In this document: piece by piece, positions 3,582 through 62,505 of the stretch
Layout: the number at the start of each line of letters is the position of its first letter
How positions within the stretch are numbered: position 1 is the first letter of the stretch
DNA from: an uncultured delta proteobacterium
Lineage (GTDB): Bacteria > Desulfobacterota > Syntrophobacteria > Syntrophobacterales > Syntrophobacteraceae
Assembly (NCBI GenBank): GCA_963712895.1
Contig: CAVQJR010000011.1
Coordinates: 4,588 to 68,587 of the forward strand
Direction of reading: 5' to 3'
DNA: 64,000 nt
Position numbers and translations under genes: made by a program
Notes under the pieces: generated by a model
Seen by the model: only the letters and a program-made list of their open reading frames with translations
What the model was told of the DNA's origin: nothing
Database searches by the model: none

Positions 3582-4748
3582 ATGAAGATACACGAGTTTC
3601 AAGCCAAAGAATTGTTTCAAAAGTATGGAGTCCCCACCCCTCGCGGGAAAGCGGCCTTCAGCGTCGACGAAGCAAAGAAGATCGCCGCCGAGCTGGGAAC
3701 CTTTCCGGTGGTGGTAAAGGCCCAGATTCACGCGGGCGGACGCGGAAAGGGCGGCGGGGTCAAGCTTGCCAAAAACGCGGCCGAAGTGGACCAATACGCA
3801 TCCAGTATACTGGGAATGACCCTGGTCACGCACCAGACCGGGCCTGAGGGCAGACTTGTAAAAAAACTCCTCGTCGAGGAGGGTCTGCCCATCGAAAAAG
3901 AACTCTACCTTAGCGTGCTCCCCGACCGGGCCACCGCAAAGATCGTCTTCATGGCCAGCGAGGCCGGCGGCATGGACATCGAAGAAGTGGCCGCCAAGAC
4001 CCCTGAAAAGATCATCAAGGTCTATATCGACCCGCTGCTCGGGATGAAGGGCTATCACGCAAACGAGCTGGCTTTCGGTCTGAACCTTTCCGGAGACCTG
4101 GTCAAGCAGTTCAACGCCATGGCCTTCAAGCTCTACAAAGTGTGCGTGGACTATGACTGCTCGCTCGTTGAGATCAATCCCCTGGTGCTTACCAGCGACG
4201 GCAAGGTGATCGCCCTGGACGCCAAGATCAATTTCGACGACAACGCCATGTACCGCCACAAGGACATCGCCGAGTACAGGGACCTGGACGAGGAAGACCC
4301 CTTCGAGATCGAAGCGTCCAAGTATGAGCTGAACTATATCAAGATGCCCGGCGGCAACATCGGCAACATGGTAAACGGCGCCGGCCTGGCCATGGCCACC
4401 ATGGACATCATCCAGCTTGCCGGAGCGGCCCCCGCGAACTTTCTGGACGTCGGCGGCGGCGCCAGCGCCGAGCAGGTGGAAAACGGGTTTCGCATCATCC
4501 TGGCGGACCCGGCCGTGAAGGGCGTGCTGATCAATATTTTCGGCGGCATCCTGCGCTGCGACAGGCTGGCCAACGGTGTCGTCGAAGCGGCAAAAAAAGT
4601 GGGCATCAAGGTCCCGGTGGTCATCCGGATGGAAGGCACCAATGTCGAGGAAGGGCGCCGAATCCTGGCCGAGTCCAAGCTCAATCTTATAACGGCAAAA
4701 GACGTTGCAGACGCCGCCCAAAAAATCGCGCAAATTGCAAAAGGATAG
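3582..4748 (+). CDS. sucC: Succinyl-CoA synthetase beta subunit
   Basis: [20 protein letters not shown]... ATP-grasp N-terminus and a full-length SucC-like sequence. GAGGAGAAAA sits before the ATG. Confidence 0.95.
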
Positions 4749-4760
4749 AAGGGGGAAATC

Positions 4761-5660
4761 ATGAGCATTTGGGTGGATAGAAATACGAGATTGATGGTTC
4801 AGGGTATCACGGGACGCGAGGGCCAGTTCCACACCCTGGCGTGTAAAGCATATGGGACCAATGTGGTGGCTGGCGTCACCCCCGGCAAGGGCGGCCAGAA
4901 CGTCGAGGGAATTCCGGTTTTCAACACCGTGGCAAAAGCGGTGAAGGAAACGGGAGCCAATGCGGCCATGGTCTTTGTTCCGCCTGCATTCTGCGGGGAC
5001 GCCATCCTGGAGGCCATCGACGCGGAAATCCCCCTGATCGTTACGATCACCGAGGGAATCCCCGTCATGGACATGATGAAGGCGAAAAACTACCTCAAGG
5101 CCAGCAAGAGCCGGCTGATCGGCCCCAACTGCCCGGGCATCATAACCCCCGGCCAGTGCAAGATCGGAATTCAGCCCGGCCACATCCATTCGGTCGGCCC
5201 GGTGGGTATCGTGTCGCGCTCCGGGACCCTCACTTATGAGGCGGTACACCAGATCCAAAAATTCGGCATCGGCCAGAGCACGGTCGTCGGCATCGGCGGA
5301 GACCCGGTAAACGGCACCAACTTCATCGACTGCCTGAGCGCATTCCAGGCCGACCCCGACACCAAGGCCATCATCATGGTGGGCGAGATCGGGGGATCAG
5401 CGGAAGAAGACGCCGCCGATTTCGTCAGAAAACACGTGACCAAGCCGGTGATTGGTTTCATCGCTGGCCTTACCGCTCCTCCGGGACGCCGCATGGGCCA
5501 TGCAGGTGCAATCATCAGCGGGTCCAGCGGGACCGCCCAGGGCAAGATCAAGGCAATGCGCGAAGCCGGAATAACGGTGGTTGAAAACCTCGGAGACATG
5601 GGCAAGATCGCACGCGAAGCTTTTGCCCAGGTCATCGGACAGGCCGCGGCGAAAAAATAG
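4761..5660 (+). CDS. sucD: Succinyl-CoA synthetase alpha subunit
   Basis: [21 protein letters not shown] and GHAGAII motifs. It starts 12 nt after sucC. Confidence 0.95.
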
Positions 5661-5886: not shown

Positions 5887-6585
5887 TTACCGGGCGTAGA
5901 GCTTCAGGATATTTTTCAGGTCTTCCGCCACAGGCGGCGGAGGGGGCGTAGCGCCCTTGAAAATGTCGGCCGGAAGCACCCCCGGCTTATTGTAGAAGGC
6001 GGCGTTGGCGTCATAATCGACGTACAAGGCCGCCCCCTCCAGGGAAATGCCTGCAAACAGGCCCCTGCTTTTCGAATAGGAGAGGATTTCGGCCCGCAGA
6101 TTCAGGTCCGTTCCCGCCTCGGCGGATCTGCCGACGGGACCCGCCGCCACCGAGGCATCGACTCCCAGGGTGAATTTCCCGCCGGATATATAATCCAGGC
6201 TGCGACGGCTGTTGAACACCAGGATAACGTCACTTGACTGGGCACCCGCCTGGAGGCCGAAGCTGCCGCCCGCCAGCTTGAAAAATACCGGGTTGCTCCA
6301 GCCCCGGTCCTGGGTACGCACCACCATAATTCCCGAGCCGTAGCGGACGCCGCCGATAAAGCCCGCCTTCAGAAGATCGGGGAAAATGGCGATGCCGTAG
6401 GCGCCATCGAGAAGGCTCGGAGGAATCGATTGCTCCGGTATTGCCATTATTTCCTTCATTACCGCGATCGACGAAAGGACCTTGGCCTCTTCATTGGCGC
6501 CGGCGCGCAAAGATGCGGGCATCACGAAAACAAAACCCGCCAGCAGGATAGAAATTACGGCAACAGTCCTGTACGGCATAAACAC
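5887..6585 (-). CDS. SYLF (Ysc84/DUF500) lipid-binding domain protein with N-terminal signal/TM segment
   Basis: Hydrophobic N-terminus, then AYGIAIFPDLLKAGFIGGVRYGSG...GGSFGLQAGAQ...TLGVDASVAAGPVGR, typical of the SYLF family. Confidence 0.8.
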   Translation of the reverse strand: MFMPYRTVAVISILLAGFVFVMPASLRAGANEEAKVLSSIAVMKEIMAIPEQSIPPSLLDGAYGIAIFPDLLKAGFIGGVRYGSGIMVVRTQDRGWSNPVFFKLAGGSFGLQAGAQSSDVILVFNSRRSLDYISGGKFTLGVDASVAAGPVGRSAEAGTDLNLRAEILSYSKSRGLFAGISLEGAALYVDYDANAAFYNKPGVLPADIFKGATPPPPPVAEDLKNILKLYAR

Positions 6586-6749
6586 CCCTCCCTATGTACT
6601 GGCTCATTTTGCTGATCGGACCTCGATGGTTTACTCGATAAAGCATGGCTACTATCGCATGGACGGGGAGTACCTTGTCAAAGGAAAAAGGGAGAAGACG
6701 ATATTGCCCGTTGCCGGTTGAAGGCGGAAGCGGCACGGCACGCACGCCA

Positions 6750-8141
6750 TCAGCGCGAAACCGACGCTGCGCTTTCGTGCACGGCCTCGGAGAGCGTGGG
6801 GTGGGCATGAATGGTGTTGCGCAAATCCTGCGCCCTGAGATGGAGGCGCATGGCCAAAACACCTTCGGCGATCAGCTCCGATGCTCGCGCTCCGACGATA
6901 TGGACGCCGAGCACCCTGCCGGACCGGGCATGCGCCAGAATTTTTACGAAGCCCTCCGTTTCCCCGAGGCACCGCGCGCGCCCGGTCCCCACAAACGGAT
7001 AAGTACCCGCCCGGTACGCTACGCCCAGCTTCTTAAGCTCCTCTTCCGTCTTGCCCACACTTGCCACCTCCGGCCGCGTGTAGATGACGGCGGGGATGGC
7101 GTCGTAGTCAACCTCGCCCGGCAGGCCGGTCATGCCTTCCACGGCGGCGATCCCTTCGGCGGTTGCCTTGTGGGCAAGCATGGGACCGGGGATAAGGTCC
7201 CCGATGGCATAGATCCCGTCGGCGGTTGTGCGATACTTTTCATCCACTGTCACAAACCCCCTGGCATCGAGCTTCACCCCGAGTTGATCGAGGCCCAGGC
7301 CGCGGGTCAGCGGTTTTCTTCCCACCGAGACCAGTACCCTGTCAAACGAGACCCGCTCCTGCCCGCCGCCCGCATCGAGGGTAAGCGTCACTTCTTTTTC
7401 GCCCGCATCCGAGCCCGCCACCCTCGTGTTCAACCTGATATCGAATCCCTGCTTTCTTAGCAGGCGGTCCAGCAGCCTTCCCGCCTGGCCGTCGAGCGCC
7501 CCCGCAATCGAGGGCAGCATCTCGATAACGGTGACCTTCGACCCTAGCCGCGCCCACACCGACCCCAGCTCGAGGCCTATGTATCCTCCTCCGACGATCC
7601 CCAGGCGCTCCGGCACTTCACCCAGGGCCAGGGCTTCGGTCGAACCGATAACCTTTTTGCCGTCGAAGGGAAGAAACGGCAGCTCCACCGGCTCGCTTCC
7701 GGTTGCCAGGAGCACCGCCTTGGGGGCGAAACCCTCGACTTTGCCGTCCGCTCCCGCAACTTCCACTTTTCTATCCGCCAGCAGCCTGGCCGTGCCCGTT
7801 ACCAGCGGCACTTTGGCATCATGGAGGAGCTTGCGGACGTTTTCCACCAGGCCGGAAACGATCTTTTTTTTCCGCTCCATTATGGCGGAAAGATCGACTG
7901 AGATTTCAGCGGCGTGGATGCCGTGCTCCCCCAGCCGGTTCCTGGCAAAACTCAGGTACTCGGTAGACTCCAGGAGCGCCTTGCTTGGAATACAGCCCAC
8001 GCGCAGGCACACCCCTCCCGGGTCGTGCTCCTTTTCCACGCAAACCGGCTTCATCCCCAGTTCGGCGGCCCTGAGGGCGGCGGCATACCCGCCCGGACCG
8101 GCGCCTATCACCACCAGATCGACTTGCCTTGAAGCCGGCAT
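6750..8141 (-). CDS. lpdA: Dihydrolipoyl dehydrogenase (E3)
   Basis: GAGPGGY FAD motif, redox-active CLRVGC disulfide, and C-terminal HAHPTLSE. The start abuts the sucB stop. Confidence 0.95.
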   Translation of the reverse strand: MPASRQVDLVVIGAGPGGYAAALRAAELGMKPVCVEKEHDPGGVCLRVGCIPSKALLESTEYLSFARNRLGEHGIHAAEISVDLSAIMERKKKIVSGLVENVRKLLHDAKVPLVTGTARLLADRKVEVAGADGKVEGFAPKAVLLATGSEPVELPFLPFDGKKVIGSTEALALGEVPERLGIVGGGYIGLELGSVWARLGSKVTVIEMLPSIAGALDGQAGRLLDRLLRKQGFDIRLNTRVAGSDAGEKEVTLTLDAGGGQERVSFDRVLVSVGRKPLTRGLGLDQLGVKLDARGFVTVDEKYRTTADGIYAIGDLIPGPMLAHKATAEGIAAVEGMTGLPGEVDYDAIPAVIYTRPEVASVGKTEEELKKLGVAYRAGTYPFVGTGRARCLGETEGFVKILAHARSGRVLGVHIVGARASELIAEGVLAMRLHLRAQDLRNTIHAHPTLSEAVHESAASVSR

Positions 8142-9524
8142 CTAAAGCTCCATCAACATGCGTTCGGGGTTTTCCACGTTGTCTTTTATCGTCTTCAGAA
8201 ACGTCACGGCCTCCCGGCCGTCTATTACCCGGTGGTCGTAGCTGAGGGCCACGTACATCATCGGGCGGACCACCACCTGGCCGCCCAGCGCCACCGGGCG
8301 GTCCTCTATCTTGTGCATGCCCAGGATGGCACTCTGGGGCGGGTTGAGGATGGGGGTGCTCAGAAGCGATCCGTAGATGCCCCCGTTGGTGATGGTGAAG
8401 GTACCCCCTTCCAGGTCCGAAAGCCCGAGACGGTTTTGGGAAATCTTGTCCACGAACTCCACGATCGATCTCTCCAGGCCGGCGAACCCGAGTCCGTCCG
8501 CATCGCGGATGACGGGCACCACCAGCCCGCGCTCCGCACCGATGGCGACGCCGATATTATAGTAGCCGTGGTAGACGATCTCGTTGCCTTCAAGGAATGC
8601 GTTGACCTCGGGAATATCCTTGAGGGCGGCGACACTCGCCTTTATGAAAAAGGACATCATCCCGAGCCGCACGCCATACTTTTGCCGGAAACCATCCCCG
8701 TACTGCTTTCGAAGCGCCTGCACGCGGCTCATGTCGATTTCGTTGAAGGTGGTGAGCATGGCGGTGTTTCGCTTCGACTCCAGGAGCCTTTCCGCGATGC
8801 GCTGCCGGATGGGGGACAACGCCTTTCGAAGCGTCTTCCCGGCGGCGGGAGCGGGAGTGGGACGGCGGGGGGCCGCCGATTTTGGCGCAGCCGGCGCGGC
8901 CGGCCGGCCGGCGGCCGTTCCGACCGGTTCGTGCCGGGGTATCGAAGCGCCGGGCTCGGAGACACCGCCTCCCTGTTCCAGGAAGAGCAGTACGTCGCCT
9001 TCGGTTATCCTGCCTCCCGGTCCGGTCGGGGTCAGCGCCGAAAGATCGACGCCCTTTTCTTCGGCCAGGGACGAAACGGAAGCGGAAGCCAGCGGCTTTT
9101 CGGCAGCGGGCGGTTTTGGGGGAGGTTCGGGTTCGGGCACCGCCGCTTTGGGCGCCGGCGGCCGCTCCACCGGTTTTTCCTCCACCGGGGCCGCCGTTTC
9201 AGCCCGCCCGGCACCGGGCGCGGGTGTTTCGACGGCTTCCCGTGGCTCCCGGGCCGGCGGCTCCGGCCTTTTTTCCCCTTTTTCGGCCGCCGCCGTCTCG
9301 ATTGTGGCGACCACCGTTCCCACCGAGATGGTTTTGCCTTCCTCCACCAGGATCTTCAAGACCCCGGCGGCGGGAGCGCTCACCTCCAGTGTGACCTTGT
9401 CGGTTTCGATGACGAACAGGATATCGTCCCTGGCCACCGTCTCACCGTCTTTTCTCATCCACTGCGCCAGCAGCGCCTCCTGCACGGATTCGCCGACTTC
9501 GGGCACCTTCACTTCGACCTTCAT
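8142..9524 (-). CDS. sucB: Dihydrolipoamide succinyltransferase (E2 of 2-oxoglutarate dehydrogenase)
   Basis: Lipoyl domain with [10 protein letters not shown], a Pro/Ala-rich linker, and the catalytic [10 protein letters not shown] take the start at ATG 9522-9524 (MKVEVKVPE). The listed 76-codon N-terminal extension overlaps the sucA 3' end and looks spurious. Confidence 0.9.
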
Positions 9525-9546
9525 GATCTCTCCTGCCAAGTGCCTC

Positions 9547-12306
9547 TCATTCAACATCCACCCCTTCCAACTCCGGCCGGCGATGCCCTCGCTCCCCGGC
9601 GCCCGGAAACGCCATTTCCAGGAACCTGTCCTGCTCGTGCTTGTGCGAGGCAAGGTAGCCCGAAGCAGGGCTTGCGGCCACGGCCCTGCCGATATATCCC
9701 GGCTCGGAGCCCAGGATCGTTTTGAGCCTGGGGCGCATGAATTCCCACGCACCCATGTTTTCGGGCTCTTCCTGGACCCAGAAAAATTTCCCGGCCTGCG
9801 AATACCTCGAAACCGCCTCCCGAAGTTGCTCTTCGGGGGTCGGGTAGAACTGCTCGACGCGGATTATCCCGGTCCCGGTGTCACCGGATTCCAGGCGCTT
9901 CTTTACGAGGTCGTAGTACACCTTGCCGCTGCAAAAAAAGACCCTTCCCGCATTCTCGAAACCGGTATCTTCGGTGAGGACCTCGTTAAAACGGCCCGCG
10001 GCCAATTCCTGGAGATTGGACACGGCGGCGGGGTCTCTCAGCAGGCTCTTGGGTGTGAGCACGATCAAAGGTTTTCGGAAATTTCTCTTCATCTGCCGTC
10101 GTAACAGGTGAAAATACTGCGCGGGGGTGCTCGGATAGCAGACCTGCATGTTTTCCTGCGCGCACAGTTGCAGAAACCTTTCCATGCGGGCGCTGGAATG
10201 TTCCGGCCCCTGGCCTTCGAACCCGTGGGGCAGGAGCACGGTGAGCCCGCTGTGTCTTTGCCATTTGAACTCGGCGCTGGATATGAACTGGTCGAAAACG
10301 GACTGGGCGTTGTTTGCGAAATCCCCGAACTGGGCCTCCCACATCACCAGGGTGCGGGGGCTCACGAGCGAATAGCCGTATTCGAATCCCAGGACCGCGT
10401 TTTCCGAGAGCATGCTGTCATGGACGTGGAAAGGGGCCTGGTTCGGCGCCAGGTGATTGAGCGGGCAGTGGCGCGCCTCGGTTTCCATGTCGGAAAGGAC
10501 GCTGTGCCTCTGGCTGAAGGTGCCCCTGCTGCTGTCCTGGCCGCTGAGGCGCACCGGGGTCCCCTCGACCAGCAGCGTTGCAAACGCCAGGGCCTCGCCG
10601 GTTGCCCAGTCTATCCCTTCGCCCTTTTCCACGCTTTCCACCCGCCTGTCGAGAATGCGCGCGAGCCGCCGGTGAGTTTTAAAGCCCTCCGGGAATACAT
10701 TGAGCCCGCGGGCAAGGTCGCGCAGCGCCGCGGCGTCCACTCCCGTGGCGACCGGCTCCCAGGACCAGCCGCCGTCAAGACCTTCCCAAACCTCGAAAAA
10801 GCGCTCCGCGGGCATCGTGCACGTCTTTTCGTGGGCGGCCGTATAGGCGAGTTCCATGCACTTGTTTATGCCGTCAACGATGCGCTCGGTTTCGCCCTCG
10901 CCCGTTACGCCCGACTGCTGAAGAGTCTGCGAGTAGATCCGGTACAGGGGCGGGCGGTCCTTGATGCGCTGGTACATTTTAGGCTGGGTATAATAGGGCT
11001 CGTCACCCTCGTTGTGCCCGTAGCGACGGTAGCACACAACGTCCACCACCACGTCCTTGCCGAACTGCATCCGATAGTCGAGCGCCAGCTTTATAATGTG
11101 GACCGCGGTTTCGGGGTCTTCACCGTGGACGTGGAAAATCGGGACCATCAGCATCTTTGCCACATCCGTCGCGTACCGGGTGGACCGGGCGTGTTCGGGA
11201 AGCGTGGTGAACCCGATCTGGTTGTTTATTATGATGTGCAGCGTCCCGCCCGTGCCGTATCCTTCGAGCTGCGAAAGGTTGAGCGTTTCGGCAACGACTC
11301 CCTGGCCGGCGAAGGCGGCGTCCCCGTGGATCAGAAGCGGCAGCACCAGCCCGCGGCCGCTTTCGCCCAACCGTTCCTGCCGCGCATACGCGATCCCTTC
11401 CAGCACGGGGTCCACGGCTTCGAGGTGGCTGGGATTGTTGGCAAGAAACAGGCGGATCTTTTTCCCCTCTCCCTCCAGGTCGCCCATGTAGCCCCGGTGG
11501 TACTTTACATCCCCGGCCCCATAGATCGACTGCGGGTCGTAGTGCTCCTCGAATTCACAAAAAATCCATTCGTAGAGCTTGTTCATTATGTTTACCTGGA
11601 TATTGAGACGCCCCCGGTGGGCCGTTCCAATCTCGATCTCGCCAAACCCGGCGCGGCCGGCATGCCGCACCAGCGCGTCCATCATGGGAATGATTACGTC
11701 CGCACCTTCCAGTGAAAACCGTTTCTGGCCAATGTAGCGAATGTGCAGGAACTGCTCGAACATGTTCGCCTGGCAGAGCTTGTTTAAAATCAGCACCCTT
11801 TCGTCATTGCTCAGGCCGGGGCGGTTGCGCTCCGGCTCGATCCTTTCCTGGAGCCACGCCCGCTCGTGCGGGTCCTGGAGGTGCATGTACTCGATACCCA
11901 CCGAACGGCAGTAGGTCCGGCGCAGCGCGGACAGGATGTCCCGAAGCGTGGCGTCTTCGCTAAACAGGGTGGGTGGGGTGAAGAAACGCCGGTCGAGATC
12001 GTCATCGGAGAGGCCGAAAGCGGAAAGTTCCAGCAGTTCGTGATTATTGACGCACCTTTCCAGCGGGTCGAGACAGGCCAGCAGGTGCCCCAAGTCGCGG
12101 TAACGATAGATGAGTTCCTGGACGCCGCACTGCTTTAGCAGCTCGCCCCTTTCGCAAAAACCGGCGCCGACACGCTCGGGAGATGCCGCCAGCTCGAAGC
12201 CTTCGAAAAAAATCTGCCAGTCGCGCCCGACGCTCAGCGGGTCGGACATCCACTTCCGGTACTGCTCGTCCATGAATTCGGCGTTCAAACCCAAAGCTAG
12301 ATTCAT
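9547..12306 (-). CDS. sucA: 2-oxoglutarate dehydrogenase E1 component
   Basis: 919 aa. N-terminus [28 protein letters not shown] and the ThDP-enzyme body are typical SucA. Confidence 0.95.
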
Positions 12307-12551
12307 CGGTAAATTGTTCCTGTGGGAAGAAAACGAATCGCGCCGGGGGCCGGCTCACGCGCCCGCCGTTGCGGCGAAAATAATCATGATTTCATGTTCC
12401 GTGCGGATTCAAAGCTTAGAGATAGCTATGATGGATGTGATGTCAAGGATGAGAGGCCGCGATGTGATGCGTACAAGCGAGGAGAGATGACAGGCGACAG
12501 CGCCGTTCGGCCGAGGCATCGAAACATGAACGGCCGCGGGTGTGCCGGCAA

Positions 12552-12956
12552 TTAATGGTCCAGGTCGGAAGGCGCATTTTCGTATGCGAAATTCTCGATG
12601 AAATCCTGCAGCATCGACGTTTGTCTTACGTTAAGGTTTTCAAACTCTACGCCGCAGCGCCTGGTTTTTATCTGGTTCCAGGAGCGTTCCGGGATTTCAT
12701 CATCATAGATGACCCTGCAGACCACTTTTTCCAGGTGAATAAATCGCCCGTTGCTTCCGAAAATCTTAATGGAGTGGCTCTCTCGCTGCTCCTCGCCGGT
12801 CGAAAGATAGCGAACGCACAGGCCTCCCATGCTTATGTCCAGGAGGTTGCCCAAATCAAGCGAATCGTCGGGCCGGATGAATGCCGCAAAAGCGCCCTCT
12901 TTCGCTCTATATCTCTTGTACTTCCGTTTCTCTTCGGCCATTTGCCCTTCCATCAA
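12552..12956 (-). CDS. PilZ domain protein (c-di-GMP receptor family)
   Basis: RKYKRYR (RxxxR) followed by DISMGG (D/NxSxxG) at the expected spacing. Confidence 0.8.
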   Translation of the reverse strand: MMEGQMAEEKRKYKRYRAKEGAFAAFIRPDDSLDLGNLLDISMGGLCVRYLSTGEEQRESHSIKIFGSNGRFIHLEKVVCRVIYDDEIPERSWNQIKTRRCGVEFENLNVRQTSMLQDFIENFAYENAPSDLDH

Positions 12957-13497
12957 AATCCGCCGTCCGGCAGTTGAGTAAAATTCGAAGTGCTGTCGCT
13001 CTTACAGGAAAGAATAAATCCCCGGCTCGGAAATCGAAATGGGGCGTAGATGAGATTTGTCTTCTCAGATTAAAAAACCACCCGGAATTCTTATTTGAAT
13101 TTTTATATATAAGTAAGGGGGATTTTAGTGGGTACAAATTGGGTAAAATCGCTAGCCACTTATTCTGGAAGAACAGACAAGACAAGATAGTACAAAGGAT
13201 TGGCGAGTCCTGCCGAAAGGAGAGCCGGTCTACCGTCTTTACCCGTGCGACCGAATCGTTTCAAACCACGGGGAGCGCAAGCCGGCAGGGGCTGCGGCAA
13301 ATAAAAAGCAGTACCGGGCCGGATGGTAAACTCGCCCGCGGTTATTATATTGCCTCTCAGTACCACCGATTTTTGTAAAATTGTTCCACCTCTGCCCGGA
13401 CACTGATTCTGCCGCTGTCTGCGATCGTGAAACGGGGTGGAGCAATTCCCGGTCCCCGTTTTCCAAACTTCAATTCAACGAACAAAAGGAGGATGCG

Positions 13498-13707
13498 ATG
13501 TCTGTGTACAAGATAGTTGAGTTGGTTGGAACCAGCCCGAATTCCTGGGAAGAAGCCGCCAAAGAGGCAGTGGAAACCGCCACCAAGAGCATTCGGGATC
13601 TCAGGATCGCGGAGATCGACAAGATGGACGTAAGGATCGAAAACGGCAAATTGACCGAGTATCGCGTGCGCGTGAAGCTCTCGTTCAAATACGAAGGTGC
13701 CGAATAG
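13498..13707 (+). CDS. Dodecin family flavin-binding protein
   Basis: MSVYKIVELVGTSPNSWEEAAKEAVETA...YRVRVKLSFKYE matches the bacterial dodecin pattern. AAAGGAGGA lies 6 nt upstream of ATG 13498. The listed ORF start at 13381 is an upstream extension. Confidence 0.85.
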   Translation: MSVYKIVELVGTSPNSWEEAAKEAVETATKSIRDLRIAEIDKMDVRIENGKLTEYRVRVKLSFKYEGAE

Positions 13708-26487: not shown

Positions 26488-26940
<453 letters not shown>

Positions 26941-42174: not shown

Positions 42175-42667
42175 GTTGCGTTCGGGAATGTATCGAGGAA
42201 TGCTTTTTAATAGTCGGGTAGCCGAGGGTAGTTGATCGCTTGATTGTTCGCTCCGATGCCCGGCCAAGCGCAGCCTGGCACAGCCCGGTGGAGGTCAGCG
42301 GCCCCACTATCCGGATTTCTGGGCGGAGATGACAGGGTCTCCCAGGTTCCTGGAGAACCCCAATGTATGCATGCACTGCTCTCTGACCCAGGCGGGACCT
42401 TGGTGTGATACCGTCTTGCACCAGGATGCTGCCTTCCGCCAATTAGACAGCGTCGGCTCCCACGACTGGAACGATTTCGGGGCTCAATCACACGGCCTGC
42501 ATACTCCCTGTGTACGCTTCGCAGGGTGGATTACCTCACCACCACGCAACACTCGGTTCCGGCTGTCGGCACACTTGGCCGGGCGGGGTTGAATACCCGC
42601 AGGGTTCCAATGAGAAATTTCGGAGATATGCACCTCCTCCCAATCTCCCAGGCTTGGCCTGGCGCAC
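42175..42667 (-). mobile_element. Possible second group II intron 5' fragment; 3' limit approximate
   Basis: The minus strand reads GTGCGCCAGGCCAAGCCTGGGAG...GGTGAGGTAATCCACC...GAGCCCCGAAATCG...GGGAGCCGAC, which resembles domain I of a class different from 26488-26940. I recognised no RT ORF and no domain V. Confidence 0.4.
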
Positions 42668-54784: not shown

Positions 54785-54798
54785 CGGGGGCTTGAGGG

Positions 54799-54880
54799 CT
54801 GGATGCTCGATGGTGGATGCTGGATGCTGGATGGTAAGCCTGGATGCTCGATGGTGGATGGTCGATGGTCGATGGTGGAC
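54799..54880. repeat. TGGATGC / GATGGTC short tandem repeat tract
   Basis: CTGGATGCTCGATGGTGGATGCTGGATGCTGGATGGTAAGCCTGGATGCTCGATGGTGGATGGTCGATGGTCGATGGTGGAC begins 14 nt after the peptidase stop. Confidence 0.8.
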
Positions 54881-55083
54881 AGGGCAAAGCCCTTGCCCAC
54901 CATAGCGTCACCCCGGCAGCGCCTCTGGGCCGGGGTCCAGTGTCTTTCGCTGGTTCCCAAGCTCCGGCTTGGGAACCGGTCTTGCCCCAATGGGGCTCAA
55001 TTCGGTCCGGTCCGGCGCGTAGAGCTGCCCTGGTCACATGCCCCCCACGAGTCACCGCCCGGAAGAACGCTGCAGGCCTTATA

Positions 55084-55203
55084 CCAGTTTGCGTCCAAGA
55101 TCGTTCGTCCTGAGGTATCGAAGGGCGGACGATCCACCCGTTCATGCTTCGATACCTCAGCACGAACGGGACCAAGTTCAGTTCAATCTTGAACACAAAT
55201 TGG
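55084..55203 (+). repeat. H-family MITE variant (TA-flanked, 22-bp hairpin of unrelated sequence)
   Basis: The termini CCAGTTTGCGTCCAAGAT and ATCTTGAACACAAATTGG form an 18-bp TIR. TA at 55082-55083 and 55204-55205. The stem pairs 55102-55123 with 55147-55168 with one mismatch. Confidence 0.85.
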
Positions 55204-55490
55204 TATTAATTACATTTTCGCCAGTGTTTCGAAACGGGGGGCTTACCACCACGGCGCTGCGCGGCTACTCACCTTAATGACGTTCTGCCCGCGCATCCCC
55301 CTCTCCGAATGAGAATCTAATCTCCAGATATGTTTTGAAGAACTTGTGAATTCCCAGTGCTTCGATTTTGAAGAGGAGAGGAATTCCTTTCATTGCCCAA
55401 GGCTCCACAAATGAAACCAGCCGGGACGTTTCCGACATCAAATCCAGGCCGGGAACTTGTTGATTGTAGCCTATGGAAGTCCTTTTCATA

Positions 55491-56613
55491 CCAACTTGCG
55501 TGCAAGATTGAACTATAGTAATATGCAACCCACCACTCAGGAGGAGGTTGCCAATGCCAAAGAAAACGAAAGTATCCGGCGAGGTGCTTCAATTGGCTAT
55601 GGAAGCTGCTGAGAAAGCTAAAACTTCCGATGACCTCAGAGCTGCTCAAGCTGTATTGATCCCTGGCCTTCTCGACATCCCTGACCGCATCACCGGGAAA
55701 ATCATCGGCCGCTCCCGTGTAACAGTAGTCCAACTGCGGAAGAAATTCAGCATGGCTAAACAAGCGCAAAACCGCAACTGGGGCGGTTGCCGCTCCGGCT
55801 ATATGACTGTTGAGCAAGAACGCCAATTCCTCTCGGAATTCTTGGACCGGGCTGCACATGGCCGTATTTTGGTTGTAAGTAAGATTCAGCAGGCATTTGA
55901 GGCCAAAGTGGGGCGCAAGGTAGCCCAAACCACTATATACCGGATGCTGGACCGGCATGATTGGCGAACGATCATTCCCGGACCCCGCCATCCTAAAAGC
56001 AGCGCAGAGGCCCAGGAGGGCTTTAAAAAAACTCCCGAAAACAGTGGCTAAATGCGCCAAGGCACTTGCTCCGCTCAGAGTACGTTTGCGGTTGATGCTT
56101 CAAGATGAGGGCCGCTTTGGAAGAATCAGCACCCCTCAACGTTGCTGGGCGCCACGCGGAGTTCGCCCCTGTGTTCCAAGCCAGATCGTGCGCGAGTACA
56201 CCTATGCATATGCTGCCGTATCGCCTCATGACGGAACAATGGATTCGTTGATTCTTCCTCAGGTTAACGAGCAGGCAATGTCCATCTTTTTACGTGAAGT
56301 AAGCAACCGACATCCGGATGAGTTCATTCTGATGGTAATGGACGGCGCCGGATGGCATAAAGCCAAGGCGCTCAGTGTGCCCACAAACATGGCGCTGATC
56401 TTTCTTCCACCATATAGTCCAGAACTCAATCCGGTAGAGCATATTTCGGATCACTTCCGCGAGGACGGCTTCCGAATCAAGGCTTTTAATAGCATCGAGG
56501 CCGTGGAGGATCAGTTGATGCAGTCCTTGGAAGCCCTCGAAATGAACCCGGCGTTAGTGGCAAGCATGACGGGCTTTCCTTGGATCGTTAGTATGAACTT
56601 GCACGCAAAATAG
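55491..56613 (+). mobile_element. IS630-family insertion sequence (1123 bp) with TA target duplication
   Basis: The left end CCAACTTGCGTGCAAGAT matches the reverse complement of the right end, CTATTTTGCGTGCAAGTT, at 14 of 18 positions. TA at 55489-55490 and 56614-55615 corrected to 56614-56615. The transposase stop lies inside the right IR. Confidence 0.85.
55554..56613 (+). CDS. IS630-family DDE transposase, made from two frames by a probable -1 frameshift
   Basis: orfA (HTH, ends 56051) and orfB (DDE: ...MLQDEGRFG...MVMDGAGWH...PPYSPELNPVEH) overlap. An A7 run at 56025-56031 (TTT AAA AAA A) lies in the overlap. Confidence 0.8.
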
Positions 56614-56703
56614 TAGCAACCACCGGGTAGGGTCGGGCATAAATTCACCTGCCCACCGGAATTTTCATGTATTAATCTAAAATGCCAGTGGGATTCGCGG
56701 ACA

Positions 56704-56790
56704 AGAACTGTACCGTGGCCATAATTTACGAATTCCTCTTGTGCTTCGCACCCGGATTGACGAGCTATCAGTGCAACCACGCGGGAACAA
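56704..56790. repeat. Left ~85-bp inverted repeat bounding the LexA-MTase cassette
   Basis: Its reverse complement aligns with 61283-61367. The perfect 51-bp core is GGTTGCACTGATAGCTCGTCAATCCGGGTGCGAAGCACAAGAGGAATTCGT. Confidence 0.9.
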
Positions 56791-56802
56791 GGGATATCCC
56801 CA

Positions 56803-57499
56803 CTACCGAATGAGCAGCCATAGGTGAGATATGCTTATGGGACATGCTGAGCCTCGGTATTCAGGCCAGAGAAAATCCCTTCTGTGGCTTGAACGATAGA
56901 TCGCATGTTCATCAATCGCGGAATGCTCAATTGGTTTCAGAATGGCTTTATTTTTGACATCATCAAGGATGAAAGCAAGCTGTGCGAAAGAGTACCCTTC
57001 CTTTGCGTATCCGCCATAAGCGCGTCCTGCATGGCCCATGCATAATCTCCATTGACGAAGCGGACTAAGCCCTTATTGCAGTAGCAGGACGAGATGGTGT
57101 GTTTAGGATCGATCGGTTTCACTCCACAAAGAGACCATCTTGATCGCTGAGAATCGGCAAGTTTCCTCGTCTTAATTTGAAGAAGAAGTCCGGCATCTTA
57201 TCGGGGTGCTTTTTGTCAAAATTTGTGATCTTTTGATCCCTGCTCACTCTGCCGAACAACTCATTGTTAAATCCATTGATTTCGCCGCTCTTTCGCAAAC
57301 GGTTTTCGATTATTTCGACCAGAATTTGTGTAACGGTATCTTCGTCAGCCAATTGCATATTAAAGCCGGTGGGAGGGGTTTCTTCGAGCAACTGCCAAGC
57401 CCTCCTGATAACCTTGGTGAGGAGCAGGATAGTACGCTCTGGAATTGGCGGGTGCGGCAAGGTGAATTCCACACCACGAGTGAAAAAGCCGATGGGCAT
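56803..57499 (-). pseudogene. Frameshifted small ORF with a possible PD-(D/E)xK nuclease motif
   Basis: Three successive minus-strand ORF pieces lie in different frames (57119..57499, 56937..57122, 56803..57039). The ATG overlaps the MTase stop (TGATG, 57497-57501). Repairing a 1-nt shift at ~57119 gives ...KMPDFFFKL-x-DGLFVE-x-KPID. Confidence 0.6.
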
Positions 57500-60400
57500 C
57501 AGCTTCTCCTTATCGGAAAAGCATCGAGGTGATGGCGTAGAATGTCTAATGCACATAACCGGGCACGGCTTAGCGTCCAATAACGGTATTGGCCGATGAT
57601 CCCTACAAGCAGATATCTCTCTCCATGGACAATGACACGGCTGCAGCCTGTTCTATTGGCTTCTTCGGTGATCAGAGAAATCAGGTGATTTTGCGCCGCT
57701 TGCGTCGGGACTGGCGAACCTGCGGACGAGGAAACAGAAAAGAAATGCCAAGGAGACAGGAATCCTTGTTTCTCAACCTGAACTTCACGGACTGCCAGGG
57801 TCTCATTTGTCAGATCGAAAGATGGTATCAGTAATTGGTGAAGTTCCGCATAGAAAGCACTGCGCTCGTCTTTCTTTGGGGGGCTGTTGGCACGGTCTCG
57901 GGCTTCCCTGAAGGGAGATGCAATCTCTAGTGTATCTTTCACGACTTGACGCTCATATTCATCGATATCGTATAAATCGAAAATGAAATCGTTAATCGCT
58001 TTCCAGGGTTTGACGGCTTCTGTTTCAAGCTGAATAGACAGAGCTTCTGCGTTTAGGCGTTGATCTGGGGATAACAGCTCTGGTGTTGGAAAAGGAAACT
58101 TCTCAATGTTCTCTTTAAGAAAAGTTCTTCGTTCGGCAGCCATCCTGGAGCTAGTCATCAACACATGGTAGCGGAACAAATCACAGTGGGTGATCAGGTG
58201 AAGGAGCGCGATGATAGTGTTCGCTTTGTTGCTGCCAGCCGCAGAGAAGCCGTAATAGCTTTTGCTGAAAACAGCCGATTCATGCACAATCCATGATTTA
58301 GGCGAGTATTTACGCCCTCCCGGCGATTCCGGTACAATGAGCAGCGGAGGTGTATACAATGCAATACATCTGGGCATATGGGCCGTAGGTTGCATGAATT
58401 TACGGAGCAAAAACACGTCGACCGAAAACAGGCCATTTGGTGGTGGAGCAAAATCTGGCAATCTGAGCATGAATGCTGCATCATATTGGCGCAGTTTTGG
58501 TGAACGATCGTATCCCCTCCCTGAATAAAGTCTCATGTCCTTCCAATATGACTCAACGGTCGGCCACTTCGGTTCATCAATCTTGCGGACCACTTGCACA
58601 TCTAGAGAAGTACCTACAGCTAAAGTTTTAAATAGCCAGGGATCATCAATTACTCCTATAGCGGCTACCGGCTGAGCAGATTGATAAGCAAGACGGAGAC
58701 GTCCCACATCGTTTAGGCTTCTTTCAAGATGAGGTGTAAGGAAATGAAAATGATGGCTGGCAGCGGGCACCCGGTTACGTGCAAACAAGAGCATGATAGG
58801 CTGGCTCATGCCTGGCCAGACCGCAGTATCCGACAGATTAGATCCGTTCAATATCCCCGTAATTTCCATTCCATTGAGGATTGCTTCAAAAGCTTGGACA
58901 CCTGATACTGTCTGTTTAAGAAAGATCGGCCCAGGCAGTACCATGGCGATGATGCCCCCCGGCTTGACCCACTGTGTCGCTTTCCATAAAAAAGGGAGGT
59001 CGGGGTTGTTATCGGGATTGCGGTAAGACTCTGCAAGTCCTCCGAGGCCGCGATTTTTTAGTGCCTGGCGTGTTAGACCCGTGAATGCGGCGTTATGTTC
59101 TCTAACTTGTTTCTTGGACTCTTCATCGTCGCCTTTAAGCCGCCCCCATGGTGGATTGCCGATGACCAGATCGAAGCAACCGTCGAAATCTTCGGGGAGA
59201 TCCGAACTCAGGCTACCCAGCACAAATCCCTTTGCCTCCTGCTCTTCAGGCCTCCTAAAGTTATGCAGCGCCGCACCCTGAAGCGGTTTAGGGAATCTCA
59301 GGCTTTTGGGAGGCCGCTGAGTCCCATTGAGTTCAACAGCGGTGATATAAAGTGACAATGCCGCCAGGCGTAACGCAGATTCATTAACATCGAAACCACA
59401 TAATTGAGTGTAGAGGATAGACTGAATCGTCTTGGTATCAGGTCTTTTACCGTCATGTTCCCACCGGGCCGCTACAAGCTTTCTAAATGCAAGGACGAGA
59501 AAAACTCCGGCACCGCAACTCGGGTCCAGGATTCGAGCGTCCTTCTTATTGGATAGACCGTCAAAAGCATCGTCCACAAGGTATTGAGCAATGTTCCTTG
59601 GTGTATAGTACGCGCTTGTCTGTTTCCTGTGTTGAGGATCCCAGATTTTGCTGAAATTTTCATACACCTGACTGAGTACACCTATAGGAATGTGTGCGAA
59701 GTCGAGATTGCCCCAATCAATAGTGGTTTGGAATGAGGCCCCAACATGTTTCCATCCTTCCAAAATAGCTCTGAGATCAAGGAACACTCGACCGTCCGTC
59801 TTCAAATTCGCTTGATTAAAGAGTTCTTTATAATCGCCTGTAAGAGCAAGCAAGTCACCGTTAAAGGTCTCATCCAGCCATCGGCATGTTGCGACAGAGT
59901 TTTCGACATCTCTAAAGCAATCACCGGAGGAATTTGCGTTTGGGCATACAGTATTAAGTTCATTCTGCCGCACTATTTTGCGGTCCCAGAGGAAGCGAAA
60001 GAACAGTGCCCGTCCAAGGAATGAAAGCACATCAAGAGGATTAAGACCGTAGGTCCCGATGAGATCCTCGGAGGAGTGGGTCATGAGATCATTAATTCTT
60101 TTGAATACAAAATCAGCTTCTTTAGGCTGGCCTTCCAGGCTGAAAACACCGTTTATGATACTCTGAAAGAACAGGGGAGCTTCAGGAGTCTCACGTTTTA
60201 TCGTCTTCCCGGCGCTGCCGGCGAGAGCAGAGCGGTCCAAGTTTATCGGATATACAACCAGTTCGCCGGGATTCAAAACACCGAGGTAGGCAATCTCTCC
60301 CCGGTTAGCAAGAAGACACTGTAAGTCCAACCTCTTCTCGGGATCGGAATTCTGTATCTGGCCTCCCGACACGATGTAAAGGAGAGGCCTGGCCTGGAAT

Positions 60401-60543
60401 TCAGCGACCGCATCAACTTTAAAACTCGCGTTTCCCGAGAGCTTCAGCAGATCGAGGTATTCCAAATGCCTGGGGGTTGGCTCGCTATCGAGCCGAACGA
60501 CGTCATGACATCCATAGGCTTTGGCTTCATCAATGACATTCAT
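57499..60543 (-). CDS. Large N6-adenine DNA methyltransferase (gamma-class, Eco57I/type IIG-like core) with unassigned N- and C-terminal regions
   Basis: Motif I ILDPSCGAGVFL, FDVNESALRLAALSL, and motif IV DLVIGNPPWG in the order I then IV. ~330 aa N-terminal and ~450 aa C-terminal to the core are unrecognised. The start overlaps the repressor stop (ATGA, 60540-60543). Confidence 0.85.
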   Translation of the reverse strand: MNVIDEAKAYGCHDVVRLDSEPTPRHLEYLDLLKLSGNASFKVDAVAEFQARPLLYIVSGGQIQNSDPEKRLDLQCLLANRGEIAYLGVLNPGELVVYPINLDRSALAGSAGKTIKRETPEAPLFFQSIINGVFSLEGQPKEADFVFKRINDLMTHSSEDLIGTYGLNPLDVLSFLGRALFFRFLWDRKIVRQNELNTVCPNANSSGDCFRDVENSVATCRWLDETFNGDLLALTGDYKELFNQANLKTDGRVFLDLRAILEGWKHVGASFQTTIDWGNLDFAHIPIGVLSQVYENFSKIWDPQHRKQTSAYYTPRNIAQYLVDDAFDGLSNKKDARILDPSCGAGVFLVLAFRKLVAARWEHDGKRPDTKTIQSILYTQLCGFDVNESALRLAALSLYITAVELNGTQRPPKSLRFPKPLQGAALHNFRRPEEQEAKGFVLGSLSSDLPEDFDGCFDLVIGNPPWGRLKGDDEESKKQVREHNAAFTGLTRQALKNRGLGGLAESYRNPDNNPDLPFLWKATQWVKPGGIIAMVLPGPIFLKQTVSGVQAFEAILNGMEITGILNGSNLSDTAVWPGMSQPIMLLFARNRVPAASHHFHFLTPHLERSLNDVGRLRLAYQSAQPVAAIGVIDDPWLFKTLAVGTSLDVQVVRKIDEPKWPTVESYWKDMRLYSGRGYDRSPKLRQYDAAFMLRLPDFAPPPNGLFSVDVFLLRKFMQPTAHMPRCIALYTPPLLIVPESPGGRKYSPKSWIVHESAVFSKSYYGFSAAGSNKANTIIALLHLITHCDLFRYHVLMTSSRMAAERRTFLKENIEKFPFPTPELLSPDQRLNAEALSIQLETEAVKPWKAINDFIFDLYDIDEYERQVVKDTLEIASPFREARDRANSPPKKDERSAFYAELHQLLIPSFDLTNETLAVREVQVEKQGFLSPWHFFSVSSSAGSPVPTQAAQNHLISLITEEANRTGCSRVIVHGERYLLVGIIGQYRYWTLSRARLCALDILRHHLDAFPIRRS

Positions 60544-61181
60544 GTAATGCCCCGATAATTTCTGATTCGAATTATCCCCTGATAGCGTCCGAAGATCTGA
60601 ATGAGTTCAATCTCGTCCTTGGCGTATTGACGATCGCGAAATGCTGGGTTTTCGGCTTTTAGTATAAGCAGATCTGGTGACAAGTATACCTTTTTCAATG
60701 TGGCCTCCTGCTCTATAAGAACGGCAGCGATCTCTCCATTTTCAACTCTATCCTGTCTCCGGATTACGGCGAGGTCGCCATTTCTGATTCCTGCCCCTGT
60801 CATGTTGTCGCCTGCAATACGGAGAGCAAAAAGCTCACCTCCACCAAAGAGGGAAGGCGGAATTGGAAGATTTTCTTCAATGTTCTGCTCCGCCCACATT
60901 GGAACTCCTCCTGCAATAACTCCAAGCAGAGGGATAGTCCTCTCCTGCTGGGGAGCAACCATTGTATCTGAAATCACGAACTGGATTCCGCGCGCTTTTC
61001 CGAAATTCAGGCGAATGAAACCTTTTTTTTCGATAAGTCCGAGGTGGCCACGCACAGTGTTGAGACTCCGATAGCCCAAGCCATCGCGGATTTCCGCCTG
61101 AGTCGGTGGAGAGCCATGCTTTTTCTGCCACGCGACAATATAGCGGTAAATGCTAGCTTGTTTCTCGGTCAGGTCCTTCAC
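60540..61181 (-). CDS. lexA: LexA-family (S24 peptidase) repressor paralogue
   Basis: Winged-HTH N-terminus (PPTQAEIRDGLGYRSLNTVRGHLGLIEKKG), an Ala-Gly site in LLGVIAGGVP, and an S24 body with Lys in ATLKKV. The catalytic Ser position reads Asn (AGDNM). GTG start. Confidence 0.85.
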   Translation of the reverse strand: MKDLTEKQASIYRYIVAWQKKHGSPPTQAEIRDGLGYRSLNTVRGHLGLIEKKGFIRLNFGKARGIQFVISDTMVAPQQERTIPLLGVIAGGVPMWAEQNIEENLPIPPSLFGGGELFALRIAGDNMTGAGIRNGDLAVIRRQDRVENGEIAAVLIEQEATLKKVYLSPDLLILKAENPAFRDRQYAKDEIELIQIFGRYQGIIRIRNYRGIT

Positions 61182-61200
61182 TGGGTGTCTTTCTAAGATA

Positions 61201-61235
61201 TACTGTATAAATTAACACTGGTATTATAAACAGTA
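61201..61235. promoter_or_regulatory. Two abutting SOS-box-like operators overlapping TATAAT-like hexamers
   Basis: TA-CTGT-ATAAATTA-ACAC (61203-61218) and CTGG-TATTATAA-ACAG-TA (61218-61233). The outer halves are perfect TACTGT/ACAGTA. They lie 20-55 nt upstream of the lexA-like GTG. TTTATAATAC occurs twice on the gene strand. Confidence 0.55.
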
Positions 61236-61282
61236 TTATAAAGCAGAAAGCAAGGGAATTTTTGAAGCTGTGCTTTAGACAT

Positions 61283-61367
61283 TGATTCCCGCGGGTTGCA
61301 CTGATAGCTCGTCAATCCGGGTGCGAAGCACAAGAGGAATTCGTCAAATAATGGCCACTACAGTTCT
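61283..61367. repeat. Right ~85-bp inverted repeat bounding the LexA-MTase cassette
   Basis: Partner of 56704-56790 (51-bp perfect core, a few indels and mismatches outside it). Confidence 0.9.
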
Positions 61368-61428
61368 ATGTCCCCAGAACTCCTCCCGCATGATGGCAAG
61401 TCATAGAATAAGCCTTAAAAATATCGTT

Positions 61429-61452
61429 GCCAAAGGCAACTTTGGCTTTTTT
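61429..61452 (+). terminator. Candidate rho-independent terminator facing away from the cassette
   Basis: GCCAAAG-GCAA-CTTTGGC followed by TTTTTT. No convincing plus-strand CDS lies upstream. Confidence 0.5.
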
Positions 61453-61560
61453 AAGATATCTTACTTATGGAAACCATCCGAGAAGATAGCATAAGGATGG
61501 GCGATCCCTACTTATTTGGATACGCATTAAGATGGGGAAATAAATGCCCGACGTGGCCGT

Positions 61561-62505
61561 TTAAGGCTCCGTTCGGCCGGGAAGGCAGAGGAATTCCTTT
61601 CCGCCGAAGGCCACAAATGCCAGCCGGGCCTCATCGCGCAGCCTTCTTGATTCGATTTCCAGCTCCCCCTCGGCAATTCCAAGCGATGCGGCCAACTCGG
61701 GGATCGTGCACGGCCGCCTTTCTATGGTTTCAAGAATGCGGGCCGCGATATCGGACTTCCCGGCTTCCGCGCCGCGCCCGCCGAAAACGCCGATGATTTC
61801 GGTTCGTTGCGTCTTGAAATAAGAGGCGGCGCGCTTCATCTCCTCTTCCGAAAGGCCCCTGGTGCCGGCACACGCGGGCGGCCTCACCACCGTGTTGAGT
61901 TCTATCCTGTCGGCCCCCGTTTTTTCCGCCGCCAGCGCCAGCGCGGACAATTGCTCGGGGCTGTCGTTTACCCCGGCAACGAGCATGATTTCGATATGAA
62001 ACAGGCCCCGGTACTCACGCCCGAACGCGCGAAGCCCCTCCAATATTTCCGGAAGACCGAGCATTGGATGAGGCCTGTTGATTCGGGCGAATACTTCAGG
62101 GGTGGCCGCATCCAGGGAGGGCACCACCCTGTCGGCTTTGAGAAGATCTTTTCTGACACCCGCGTCGTGCAGAAGCGAGCCGTTGGTGAGCACCACCAGG
62201 GGGATTGCGGGGTACCTGCCCTTGATCTCGCCGATCAGTTCCCCCAGCATGGCATAAAGCGTGGGCTCGCCCGCGCTGGAAAAAGTGAGGGCGTCGGCCC
62301 CCTTCGGGAACCGGCGGAAGAATTGGTCAAGCTCCTTGAGGACTTCGGCCGGGTCGGCGAAATTTTGCCTCTTCAGGCTCAAGTGGGTCGTCGGCCCCGA
62401 TTCGCAGTATATGCAGTCGAAGGAACATGTCTTCGGGGGAATTACGTCTATTCCCAGCGAACGCCCTAACCGGCGCGAAGGCACGGGACCGAATATCAAA
62501 CCCAT
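61561..62505 (-). CDS. Radical SAM protein with C-terminal winged-helix-like extension
   Basis: GPVPSRRLGRSLGI N-terminus, CSFDCIYC (CxxxCxxC) cluster and GEPTL. Confidence 0.85.
   Translation of the reverse strand: MGLIFGPVPSRRLGRSLGIDVIPPKTCSFDCIYCESGPTTHLSLKRQNFADPAEVLKELDQFFRRFPKGADALTFSSAGEPTLYAMLGELIGEIKGRYPAIPLVVLTNGSLLHDAGVRKDLLKADRVVPSLDAATPEVFARINRPHPMLGLPEILEGLRAFGREYRGLFHIEIMLVAGVNDSPEQLSALALAAEKTGADRIELNTVVRPPACAGTRGLSEEEMKRAASYFKTQRTEIIGVFGGRGAEAGKSDIAARILETIERRPCTIPELAASLGIAEGELEIESRRLRDEARLAFVAFGGKEFLCLPGRTEP

Follow-up and report, generated by a model that had tools for sequence, protein, structure and literature searches.

Long inverted repeats bracket a lexA-methyltransferase operon in an uncultured Syntrophobacteraceae bacterium

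The bracketed operon and its genomic slot

The window, the whole stretch of 64 kb of DNA analysed here, carries a 4.8-kb unit at ~56651-61431, which is composed of an operon and two inverted repeats, hereafter called arms, and has no mobility gene of its own (Table 1). The 4.5 kb between the arms are occupied by three genes on the minus strand, which form one operon according to their open reading frames and Pfam domains. The arms enclose this operon completely, from just upstream of its promoter to just past its last stop codon. We found no transposase, recombinase or integrase between the arms, either in the list of open reading frames or among the Pfam domains, in agreement with the preliminary description of this DNA, which had seen no transposase or recombinase there.

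The first gene encodes a LexA-family repressor, scoring 156 bits against the TIGR00498 lexA model (cut-off 111). Two overlapping SOS-box-like palindromes, the presumed operators of the cassette's own LexA, sit between the upstream arm and lexA and are kept in the related loci L001, L003, L102, L105 and L106. The second gene, an N6-adenine DNA methyltransferase, has an intact frame with a type IIG-like size and layout and type IIG-like PADLOC matches. PADLOC matched generic methyltransferase models alone, and no known defence system spans the three genes. The third gene is a pseudogene in the window. Its family shares an invariant PD...E-C-K (ExK) motif, and the structure predicted for it (mean pLDDT 80) shows an alpha-beta-beta-beta-alpha-beta topology. 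The protein had no match in Pfam, NCBIfam or PADLOC, and a Foldseek search against the PDB returned nothing at E<0.001, with weak matches to McrC, EcoO109I and EcoRII only. From the motif and the predicted topology, the product is probably a PD-(D/E)xK nuclease; we call it probable rather than proven because the fold search against the PDB was not significant.

The window copy of gene 3 is frameshifted by two single-base deletions, one at 57120 within the E-C-K codons and the other at 57014, neither of which occurs in L102, L001 or L103. At the sister locus L102, gene 3 is nearly intact and the methyltransferase gene is fragmented. Gene loss therefore differs between the sister genomes, and assembly errors may contribute to the difference.

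Table 1. Positions of the arms, genes and associated elements of the unit in the window.
Feature	Position	Strand	Remarks
'O' extension beyond the left-arm tip	56616-56650		~70% alike to the downstream end in L001 and the upstream end in L105
Left arm (operon-downstream)	56651-56788		starts 8-14 nt past the gene 3 stop codon
Left 51-bp perfect core	56728-56778	-	one ~50-nt module; terminus GCGGGTTG... toward the cargo
Gene 3, pseudogene in the window	56803-57502	-	homologue of a conserved 232-aa protein
Gene 2, N6-adenine DNA methyltransferase, 1014 aa	57499-60543	-	N6_Mtase/Eco57I/MmeI_Mtase domains
Gene 1, LexA-family repressor, 213 aa	60540-61181	-	LexA_DNA_bind and Peptidase_S24 domains; TIGR00498 lexA
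Two overlapping SOS-box-like palindromes	61203-61233		CTGT-N8-ACAC and CTGG-N8-ACAG; read from the sequence
Right arm (operon-upstream)	61286-61431		tip mutated in the window
Right 51-bp perfect core	61294-61344	+	same module, terminus toward the cargo

Homologues of the methyltransferase number more than 2400, and the top 120 share 66-85% identity with it. Of 76 genome loci from several phyla, almost all contain the three-gene cassette in conserved form, its hosts being Desulfobacterota, Planctomycetota, Acidobacteriota, Verrucomicrobiota and some Proteobacteria. We found no paper on a cassette of lexA, methyltransferase and PD..ExK genes; the cassette may constitute an undescribed SOS-controlled system of the restriction-modification (RM) or defence kind. 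Exact look-ups of the LexA-like, radical SAM and M16 peptidase proteins of the window returned none on record.

The unit resides in a variable hot spot between radical-SAM/MerR genes and an M16 peptidase gene. The variable region of the window comprises 6.7 kb (54792-61498) and is larger than the unit, as the slot contains an IS630 element in addition to the repeat-bracketed unit. The GC content of the unit is 0.45-0.50, compared with 0.60 in the Syntrophobacteraceae host background. In the relative L100 the slot is empty, with the radical-SAM and M16-peptidase genes only 383 nt apart (8961-9342), and in the relative L099 it is filled by a different 7-kb gene set (6357-13617); neither locus contains arm-like sequence. 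The empty locus matches the whole variable region, not the unit alone, and we saw neither excision products of the unit nor a site from which it alone is cleanly missing.

The IS630-family element (55489-56615) encodes HTH_33 and DDE_3 domains in two overlapping frames and ends in its own 27-nt terminal repeats (55489-55515 and 56589-56615). It is inserted 35 nt from the left-arm tip, and the same element is found at this place in L102. We considered whether the arms might be the ends of this neighbour and rejected the idea, as its own ends lie 35 nt away and read TA-CCAACTTGCGTGCAAG..., which is unrelated to the arm tip; TA stands at the arm tips in L102 only, not in L001. An IS630 derivative of ~130 nt, MITE-like and with related ends, lies at 55082-55209 of the window, and L102 carries a copy of it (4740-4874), flanked by TA, directly at the tip of its downstream arm. 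Just past the M16 peptidase gene, 14-nt tandem repeats (TGGATGCTCGATGG-like) extend over 54800-54890. They are followed at 54946-54977 by a palindromic hairpin (GGTTCCCAAGC..GCTTGGGAACC), which has three copies in L100 and is probably a host REP-like repeat. A 15-nt direct repeat, AGAGGAATTCCTTTC (55377-55391 and 61587-61601), was rejected as the boundary of the island; it is probably coincidental, because its right copy lies in conserved radical-SAM coding sequence. Elsewhere in the window, matches to group II intron domains at 26564-26870 (RF02001 and RF01998, plus strand) and 42377-42591 (RF02005, minus strand) indicate that it carries other mobile elements.

The arms and the clade that carries them

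The preliminary description had placed inverted repeats at 56704-56790 and 61283-61367, with a perfect 51-bp core and weaker similarity ending about 6 bp further out. Both repeat and core are borne out by our alignments. Gapped blastn of one arm against the other gave an inverted match of 91 nt with 93.4% identity (56699-56787 against 61286-61373), and a repeat search gave ungapped arms of 57 nt that are 96% complementary (56722-56778 and 61294-61350). The core occurs exactly twice in the window, and none of 100 shuffled sequences contained any match to the 51-mer. The outer limits, by contrast, had been drawn too narrowly. Aligned with the arm of L105, the arms extend over 56651-56778 (78%) and 61289-61425 (88%), to which we added the few bases in common at each edge to define full arms of ~140 nt. 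The inner ~90 nt of the left arm match the partner arm well, whereas the outer ~60 nt are strongly diverged, being only ~55-60% alike. The right-arm tip is GGCA---ACGATATTT in the window as opposed to AGCACACCGGATTTT in the sister L102. The distance between the arms is 4515 nt in the window and 4498 nt in L001.

The arms are thus long imperfect inverted repeats around genes that are not high-copy here, with two copies in 64 kb. No further copy of the arm or its module was found in the window, nor in ~70 other loci searched for the module with nhmmer. Genomes, metagenomes and viral sequences were scanned for an exact 22-mer of the core, plasmids and phages were compared with the arms by blastn, and viral contigs were searched for the arm-tip pattern, in each case without a match. 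Rfam contained no family matching the arms. In L001 an open frame can be traced across the arm, and the frames differ between the two arms of the window; such a frame had no Pfam match and no plasmid match by tblastn. We also considered whether a gene for an IS66 TnpB-like protein or a toxin might have its 5' end in the outer arm, and dropped this idea as neither Pfam nor plasmid tblastn supported it. The arms are not an assembly artefact, since they recur in independent assemblies (ENA/NCBI, Logan, JGI).

Comparison of flank against flank by blastn over the cassette loci revealed a long inverted repeat in the window and in L001, L004 and L002 only, and no such repeat in ~65 cassette loci whose flanks were long enough. 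It follows that one clade gained the arms on a single occasion, as an addition to the cassette machinery and not a part of it. Through cluster look-ups we added L102-L106, so that the arm-bearing clade comprises the window with its sister L102, L105 (a JGI contig), L103, L104 and L106 (a Smithella MAG and a Logan run), and L001, L004 and L002, i.e., only about four known lineages. L102 is 98.3% identical to the window and has the same flanks and the same cassette orientation. In L001/L004, from a Syntrophobacter MAG, the arms are 150 nt long, 99.3% alike and located among IS and toxin-antitoxin genes. The short-read contigs L002, L104 and L106 end inside arms, as expected for a repeat. Repeats flanking the cassette in L021 and L061 were examined as possible relatives of the arms and set aside, as they are unrelated self-palindromic hairpins of a terminator-like or REPIN-like kind.

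Arms and cassette occur together in at least three genomic contexts from two host orders, and the arms are positioned tightly against the operon at both ends in the same way in all four lineages. Comparison of the loci shows that arms and operon have moved together, as one unit, from genome to genome and from locus to locus. As for the cassette itself, the Smithella lineage is ~97% identical to the window in lexA and the N-terminal part of the methyltransferase (L105/L106) and only ~86% identical in the C-terminal part of the methyltransferase and gene 3 (L103/L104). Such a split suggests that recombination has made the cassette a mosaic, perhaps with exchange of the target-recognition region.

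In three contexts, the flank of the upstream arm switches exactly at one tip, (A/T)AGCACACCGGATTT. With a slash marking the switch, the junctions read CGCAATT/AAGCACACCGG in L001, GGAGCAG/AAGCACACCGG in L105 and TTGCCTT/TAGCACACCGG in L102 and the window. The preliminary description had proposed looking for target-site duplications at other copies; we found no such duplication or other direct repeat at the well-defined arm tips of L001 and L102. Beyond the tip, a segment of ~45 nt starting with ATGACTGAGACC, designated 'O', is common to three ends: the gene-3 (downstream) end in L001, the same end in the window and L102, and the lexA (upstream) end in L105. In the window it is cut by the right end of the IS630 element at 56615. 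Because 'O' is shared beyond the tip at some ends, the tip does not mark the outer limit of homology at every end. Judging from these alignments, the tip is a recurrent breakpoint, yet not the sole boundary.

Next to the unit, L001 (11945-12019) and L105 (134-222) each have a truncated extra copy of the outer arm that consists of 'O', the tip and a further ~36 nt; it stands in tandem in the former, where the junction falls at a common ATGACT, and head-to-head in the latter. Since these partial copies adjoin the unit, the arm represents a repeat family and not a one-off duplication. Together with the shared 'O' and the lack of a target duplication, they assign the arms to a small family of repeats that occur in a short form of ~150 nt and a long form of ~195 nt.

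The two arms of one unit evolve in concert. Between the window and L001, nucleotide identity is 0.89 for lexA, 0.87 for the methyltransferase gene, 0.92 for gene 3 and 0.83-0.88 for the arms, which is close to the 0.78-0.80 at third codon positions of the methyltransferase gene. In an alignment of the four arms, 13 sites are the same within an element and different between elements, and the arms within an element differ at one site in L001 and at 30 sites in the window, mostly in the outer part. The 13 concerted sites and the identity near that of third positions imply near-neutral drift of the arms with repeated homogenisation. The alignment shows that recombination or gene conversion between the two arms maintains their likeness.

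The downstream arm has a history of its own in the two sister loci. In L102, ~100 nt of it have gone from between two CCCGC motifs, and the module with them; the window has retained the module, and the outer part is aberrant. This outer part (56651-56710) is only ~55-60% alike to its counterpart in L102 (4690-4738), despite the 98% identity of the loci, and the outer arm of L102 equals that locus's own upstream arm. The mismatch suggests that one of the two loci recently underwent conversion or a template switch. The unit in the window is shown to be a decaying relic by its twice-frameshifted nuclease gene, its diverged outer left arm and the IS630 element 35 nt from the tip of that arm.

Relation to foldback repeats and known systems

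The preliminary description had suggested searching for other copies of the core. Exact copies were lacking, as described above, but a search pattern based on the arm's inner end, as found in both the window and L001, matched 19 metagenome contigs (L080-L098, JGI, mostly Ga01804xx). These contain foldback repeats of 120-145 nt with sharp ends (GCGGGTRGCC...GGCYACCCGC), each consisting of two inverted ~50-nt halves, and each half is 80-84% identical to the 51-bp core of the window. The foldback repeats are intergenic, multi-copy and often located at contig ends. They fold as long hairpins (z = -7 to -9), whereas the arms of the window and L001 alone do not (z = -0.5 to +1.0). Each half forms two local hairpins that are 94% paired with compensatory changes, and covariation is seen in the closing stem (G-C in 6 copies, A-U in 5). 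Rfam offered no fitting family for the foldback repeats; the spurious matches to miRNA precursors reflect the long hairpin. In L096, two foldback copies are joined inside a hairpin loop.

We considered whether the arms are the remains of complete foldback elements and rejected this, as the arms do not fold on themselves and nhmmer finds only one module in each. The local hairpin of the window lineage is degenerate, with 6 of 9 pairs as read from the sequence. In both arms, the conserved sharp terminus of the module faces the cargo, which is the reverse of a MITE carrying cargo.

Transposon-like RM units with long inverted repeats were described by Furuta, Abe & Kobayashi (2010; Nucleic Acids Res 38:2428, PMC2853133), among them a type II unit of Xanthomonas oryzae with 65-bp repeats (60/65) and an 8-bp target duplication (PMC2853133). 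The unit of the window resembles them in its compact methyltransferase and probable nuclease genes, in its long imperfect inverted repeats, which have no further copy nearby, in having no transposase or integrase inside and in a locus that is empty in a relative. Unlike those units, it showed no short target duplication. Its arms, at 140-195 nt, exceed theirs in length; they evolve in concert, are kin to the dispersed foldbacks and are accompanied by partial extra copies. Its cargo also includes its own LexA-family repressor, and its probable nuclease is assigned from a motif and a predicted topology.

Cargo bracketed by MITEs forms a composite of two miniature elements, e.g., in integron mobilisation units and TIME-COMP. 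Composite transposons formed by MITEs are discussed in PMC6382973. The arms are likewise short non-coding repeats without a transposase around cargo, with a module whose family consists of small, sharp-ended palindromes. However, each arm is not a complete two-ended element, does not fold on itself and has one module, and we found here neither target duplications nor a partner transposase. REP/REPIN elements are reportedly mobilised by RAYT transposases (Nunvar et al. 2010; Bertels & Rainey 2011), and a single-copy gene between inverted REPs is normally the RAYT gene itself. The metagenome foldbacks are similar to these elements as inverted pairs of ~50-nt hairpins that are intergenic, multi-copy and marked by compensatory changes, whereas the module in the window has two copies in 64 kb, both at the cassette, a degenerate hairpin and an RM-like operon as its cargo.

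Site-specific recombination offers other parallels. The pdif modules of Acinetobacter plasmids contain cargo between inversely oriented XerC/D sites of 28 bp with an 11-6-11 layout. They have in common with the unit a discrete cargo without a recombinase of its own, inverted sites and different contexts; the arms, however, are 140-195 nt long and contain no evident 28-bp site of 11-6-11 layout. Hin/Gin switches and type I hsdS shufflons also have inverted repeats around a segment and, for the latter, a restriction-modification context, but the present unit has no adjacent invertase, has its promoter inside and was seen in a single orientation at the locus compared.

Explanations for the arms

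The preliminary description had offered three readings of the repeats, namely termini of a non-autonomous cargo element, substrates for inversion of the segment and remnants of a duplicated target. A form of the first is our best explanation, and we regard it as about evenly balanced whether the arms are indeed inverted copies of a small mobile repeat bracketing a cargo operon, as in the units of Furuta and colleagues. A small repeat element, copied in inverted orientation, would bracket one complete lexA-methyltransferase-nuclease operon, and the inner ~50 nt of the repeat would be a module related to the MITE/REPIN-like foldbacks of metagenomes. Movement would proceed via an enzyme supplied in trans and acting on the repeat, or via recombination between dispersed copies. 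The kinship of the core with the foldbacks and the extra arm copies make the arm a member of a repeat family, which supports this reading, as do the recurrence of arms and cassette together in different contexts and the breakpoint at the tip. It is weakened by the missing target duplication, the inward terminus of the module, the shared 'O' and arms that are not foldbacks. Furthermore, searches of the window, of 106 loci and of plasmid, phage and viral collections revealed no autonomous, transposase-bearing element that shares these ends.

A purely passive bracket is a serious rival to the cargo-unit reading, albeit one that we consider somewhat unlikely. Repeat copies would then flank the operon by chance or through one inverted duplication and play no role in mobility; the cassette would spread via larger islands or homologous recombination, and RecA-dependent gene conversion would account for the likeness of the arms. 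The ~65 armless cassette loci in several phyla speak for it, as they imply that the cassette moves without arms, and so do the lack of a target duplication at the tips of L001 and L102, the island of 54792-61498 exceeding the unit and the homology extending past the tip at some ends. L061, where an unrelated REPIN-like foldback stands on each side of a distant cassette, shows that bracketing can arise accidentally. A passive bracket, on the other hand, fits poorly with arms that abut the operon at both ends at positions constant in four lineages and with an upstream flank that changes exactly at the tip in three contexts. The lack of any other copy in the window also argues that this host is not rich in the repeat.

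The proposal that the arms let the 4.5-kb operon flip, by homologous recombination or a distant recombinase, and thereby alter reading into or out of the unit appears improbable to us. One premise holds: the arms exchange sequence, as the 13 concerted substitutions attest, and crossing over within inverted repeats of this size (90-150 nt) would flip the segment that they enclose. The location of 'O' at the gene-3 end in L001 and the window/L102 but at the lexA end in L105 is also compatible with inversion, and equally with insertion either way. Inversion itself did not show at the locus, as the window and its 98% identical sister have the same orientation within the same flanks, and no gene for an invertase or recombinase lies nearby. 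With promoter and operators inside the segment, a flip would not switch the operon. We rejected L105 as an inverted state of the L001 or window locus: sequences outside the arms differ as well, with the extra copy head-to-head in one and in tandem in the other, so L105 and L001 do not represent one locus in two states.

Could the cassette move itself? Its PD-(D/E)xK-like protein or its methyltransferase would cut the arms under LexA/SOS control, leading to excision or transposition after damage. PD-(D/E)xK proteins can serve as transposase subunits, as does TnsA of Tn7; there is no other mobility gene inside the unit, and SOS-like operators sit on the operon. Self-mobilisation of such units was raised and left open by Furuta et al. 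(PMC2853133). We nevertheless judge it very improbable for this unit, since the same three proteins are kept in the ~65 armless loci and are not dedicated to these repeats, and since the nuclease fold of the gene 3 product was not confirmed by the PDB search. Least credible of all is that the arms are a duplicated target site or remnants of a duplicated gene or RNA. The reading frame that can be drawn through the arm of L001 would favour it, but the arm-free loci of L100 and L099 and the travel of the arms with the cassette to unrelated loci refute a duplicated target. A conserved gene or RNA in the core, also contemplated in the preliminary description, is contradicted by the absence of any Rfam, Pfam or plasmid tblastn match and by the differing frames of the window arms.

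A bolder reading, which we hold to be a long shot, follows from the local hairpins with compensatory changes and the covarying closing stem of the foldbacks: the ~50-nt module and the 150-195-nt arm would belong to an undescribed structured mobile repeat family that has captured an SOS-controlled, defence-like operon. In a stronger version, the operon's own nuclease may move the unit when LexA is cleaved.

Little is understood of how RM and other defence operons move when they carry no mobility gene. The 2010 catalogue of units with long inverted repeats gave no mechanism, and the copy in the window is a decaying example of this known organisation. The present case adds a clade in which a cassette family otherwise free of repeats clearly gained them once, direct evidence for homogenisation of the arms and a link between the arms and a dispersed family of foldback repeats. 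The enzyme acting on the repeat, if found, would reveal one way in which defence cargo comes to be packaged and disseminated.
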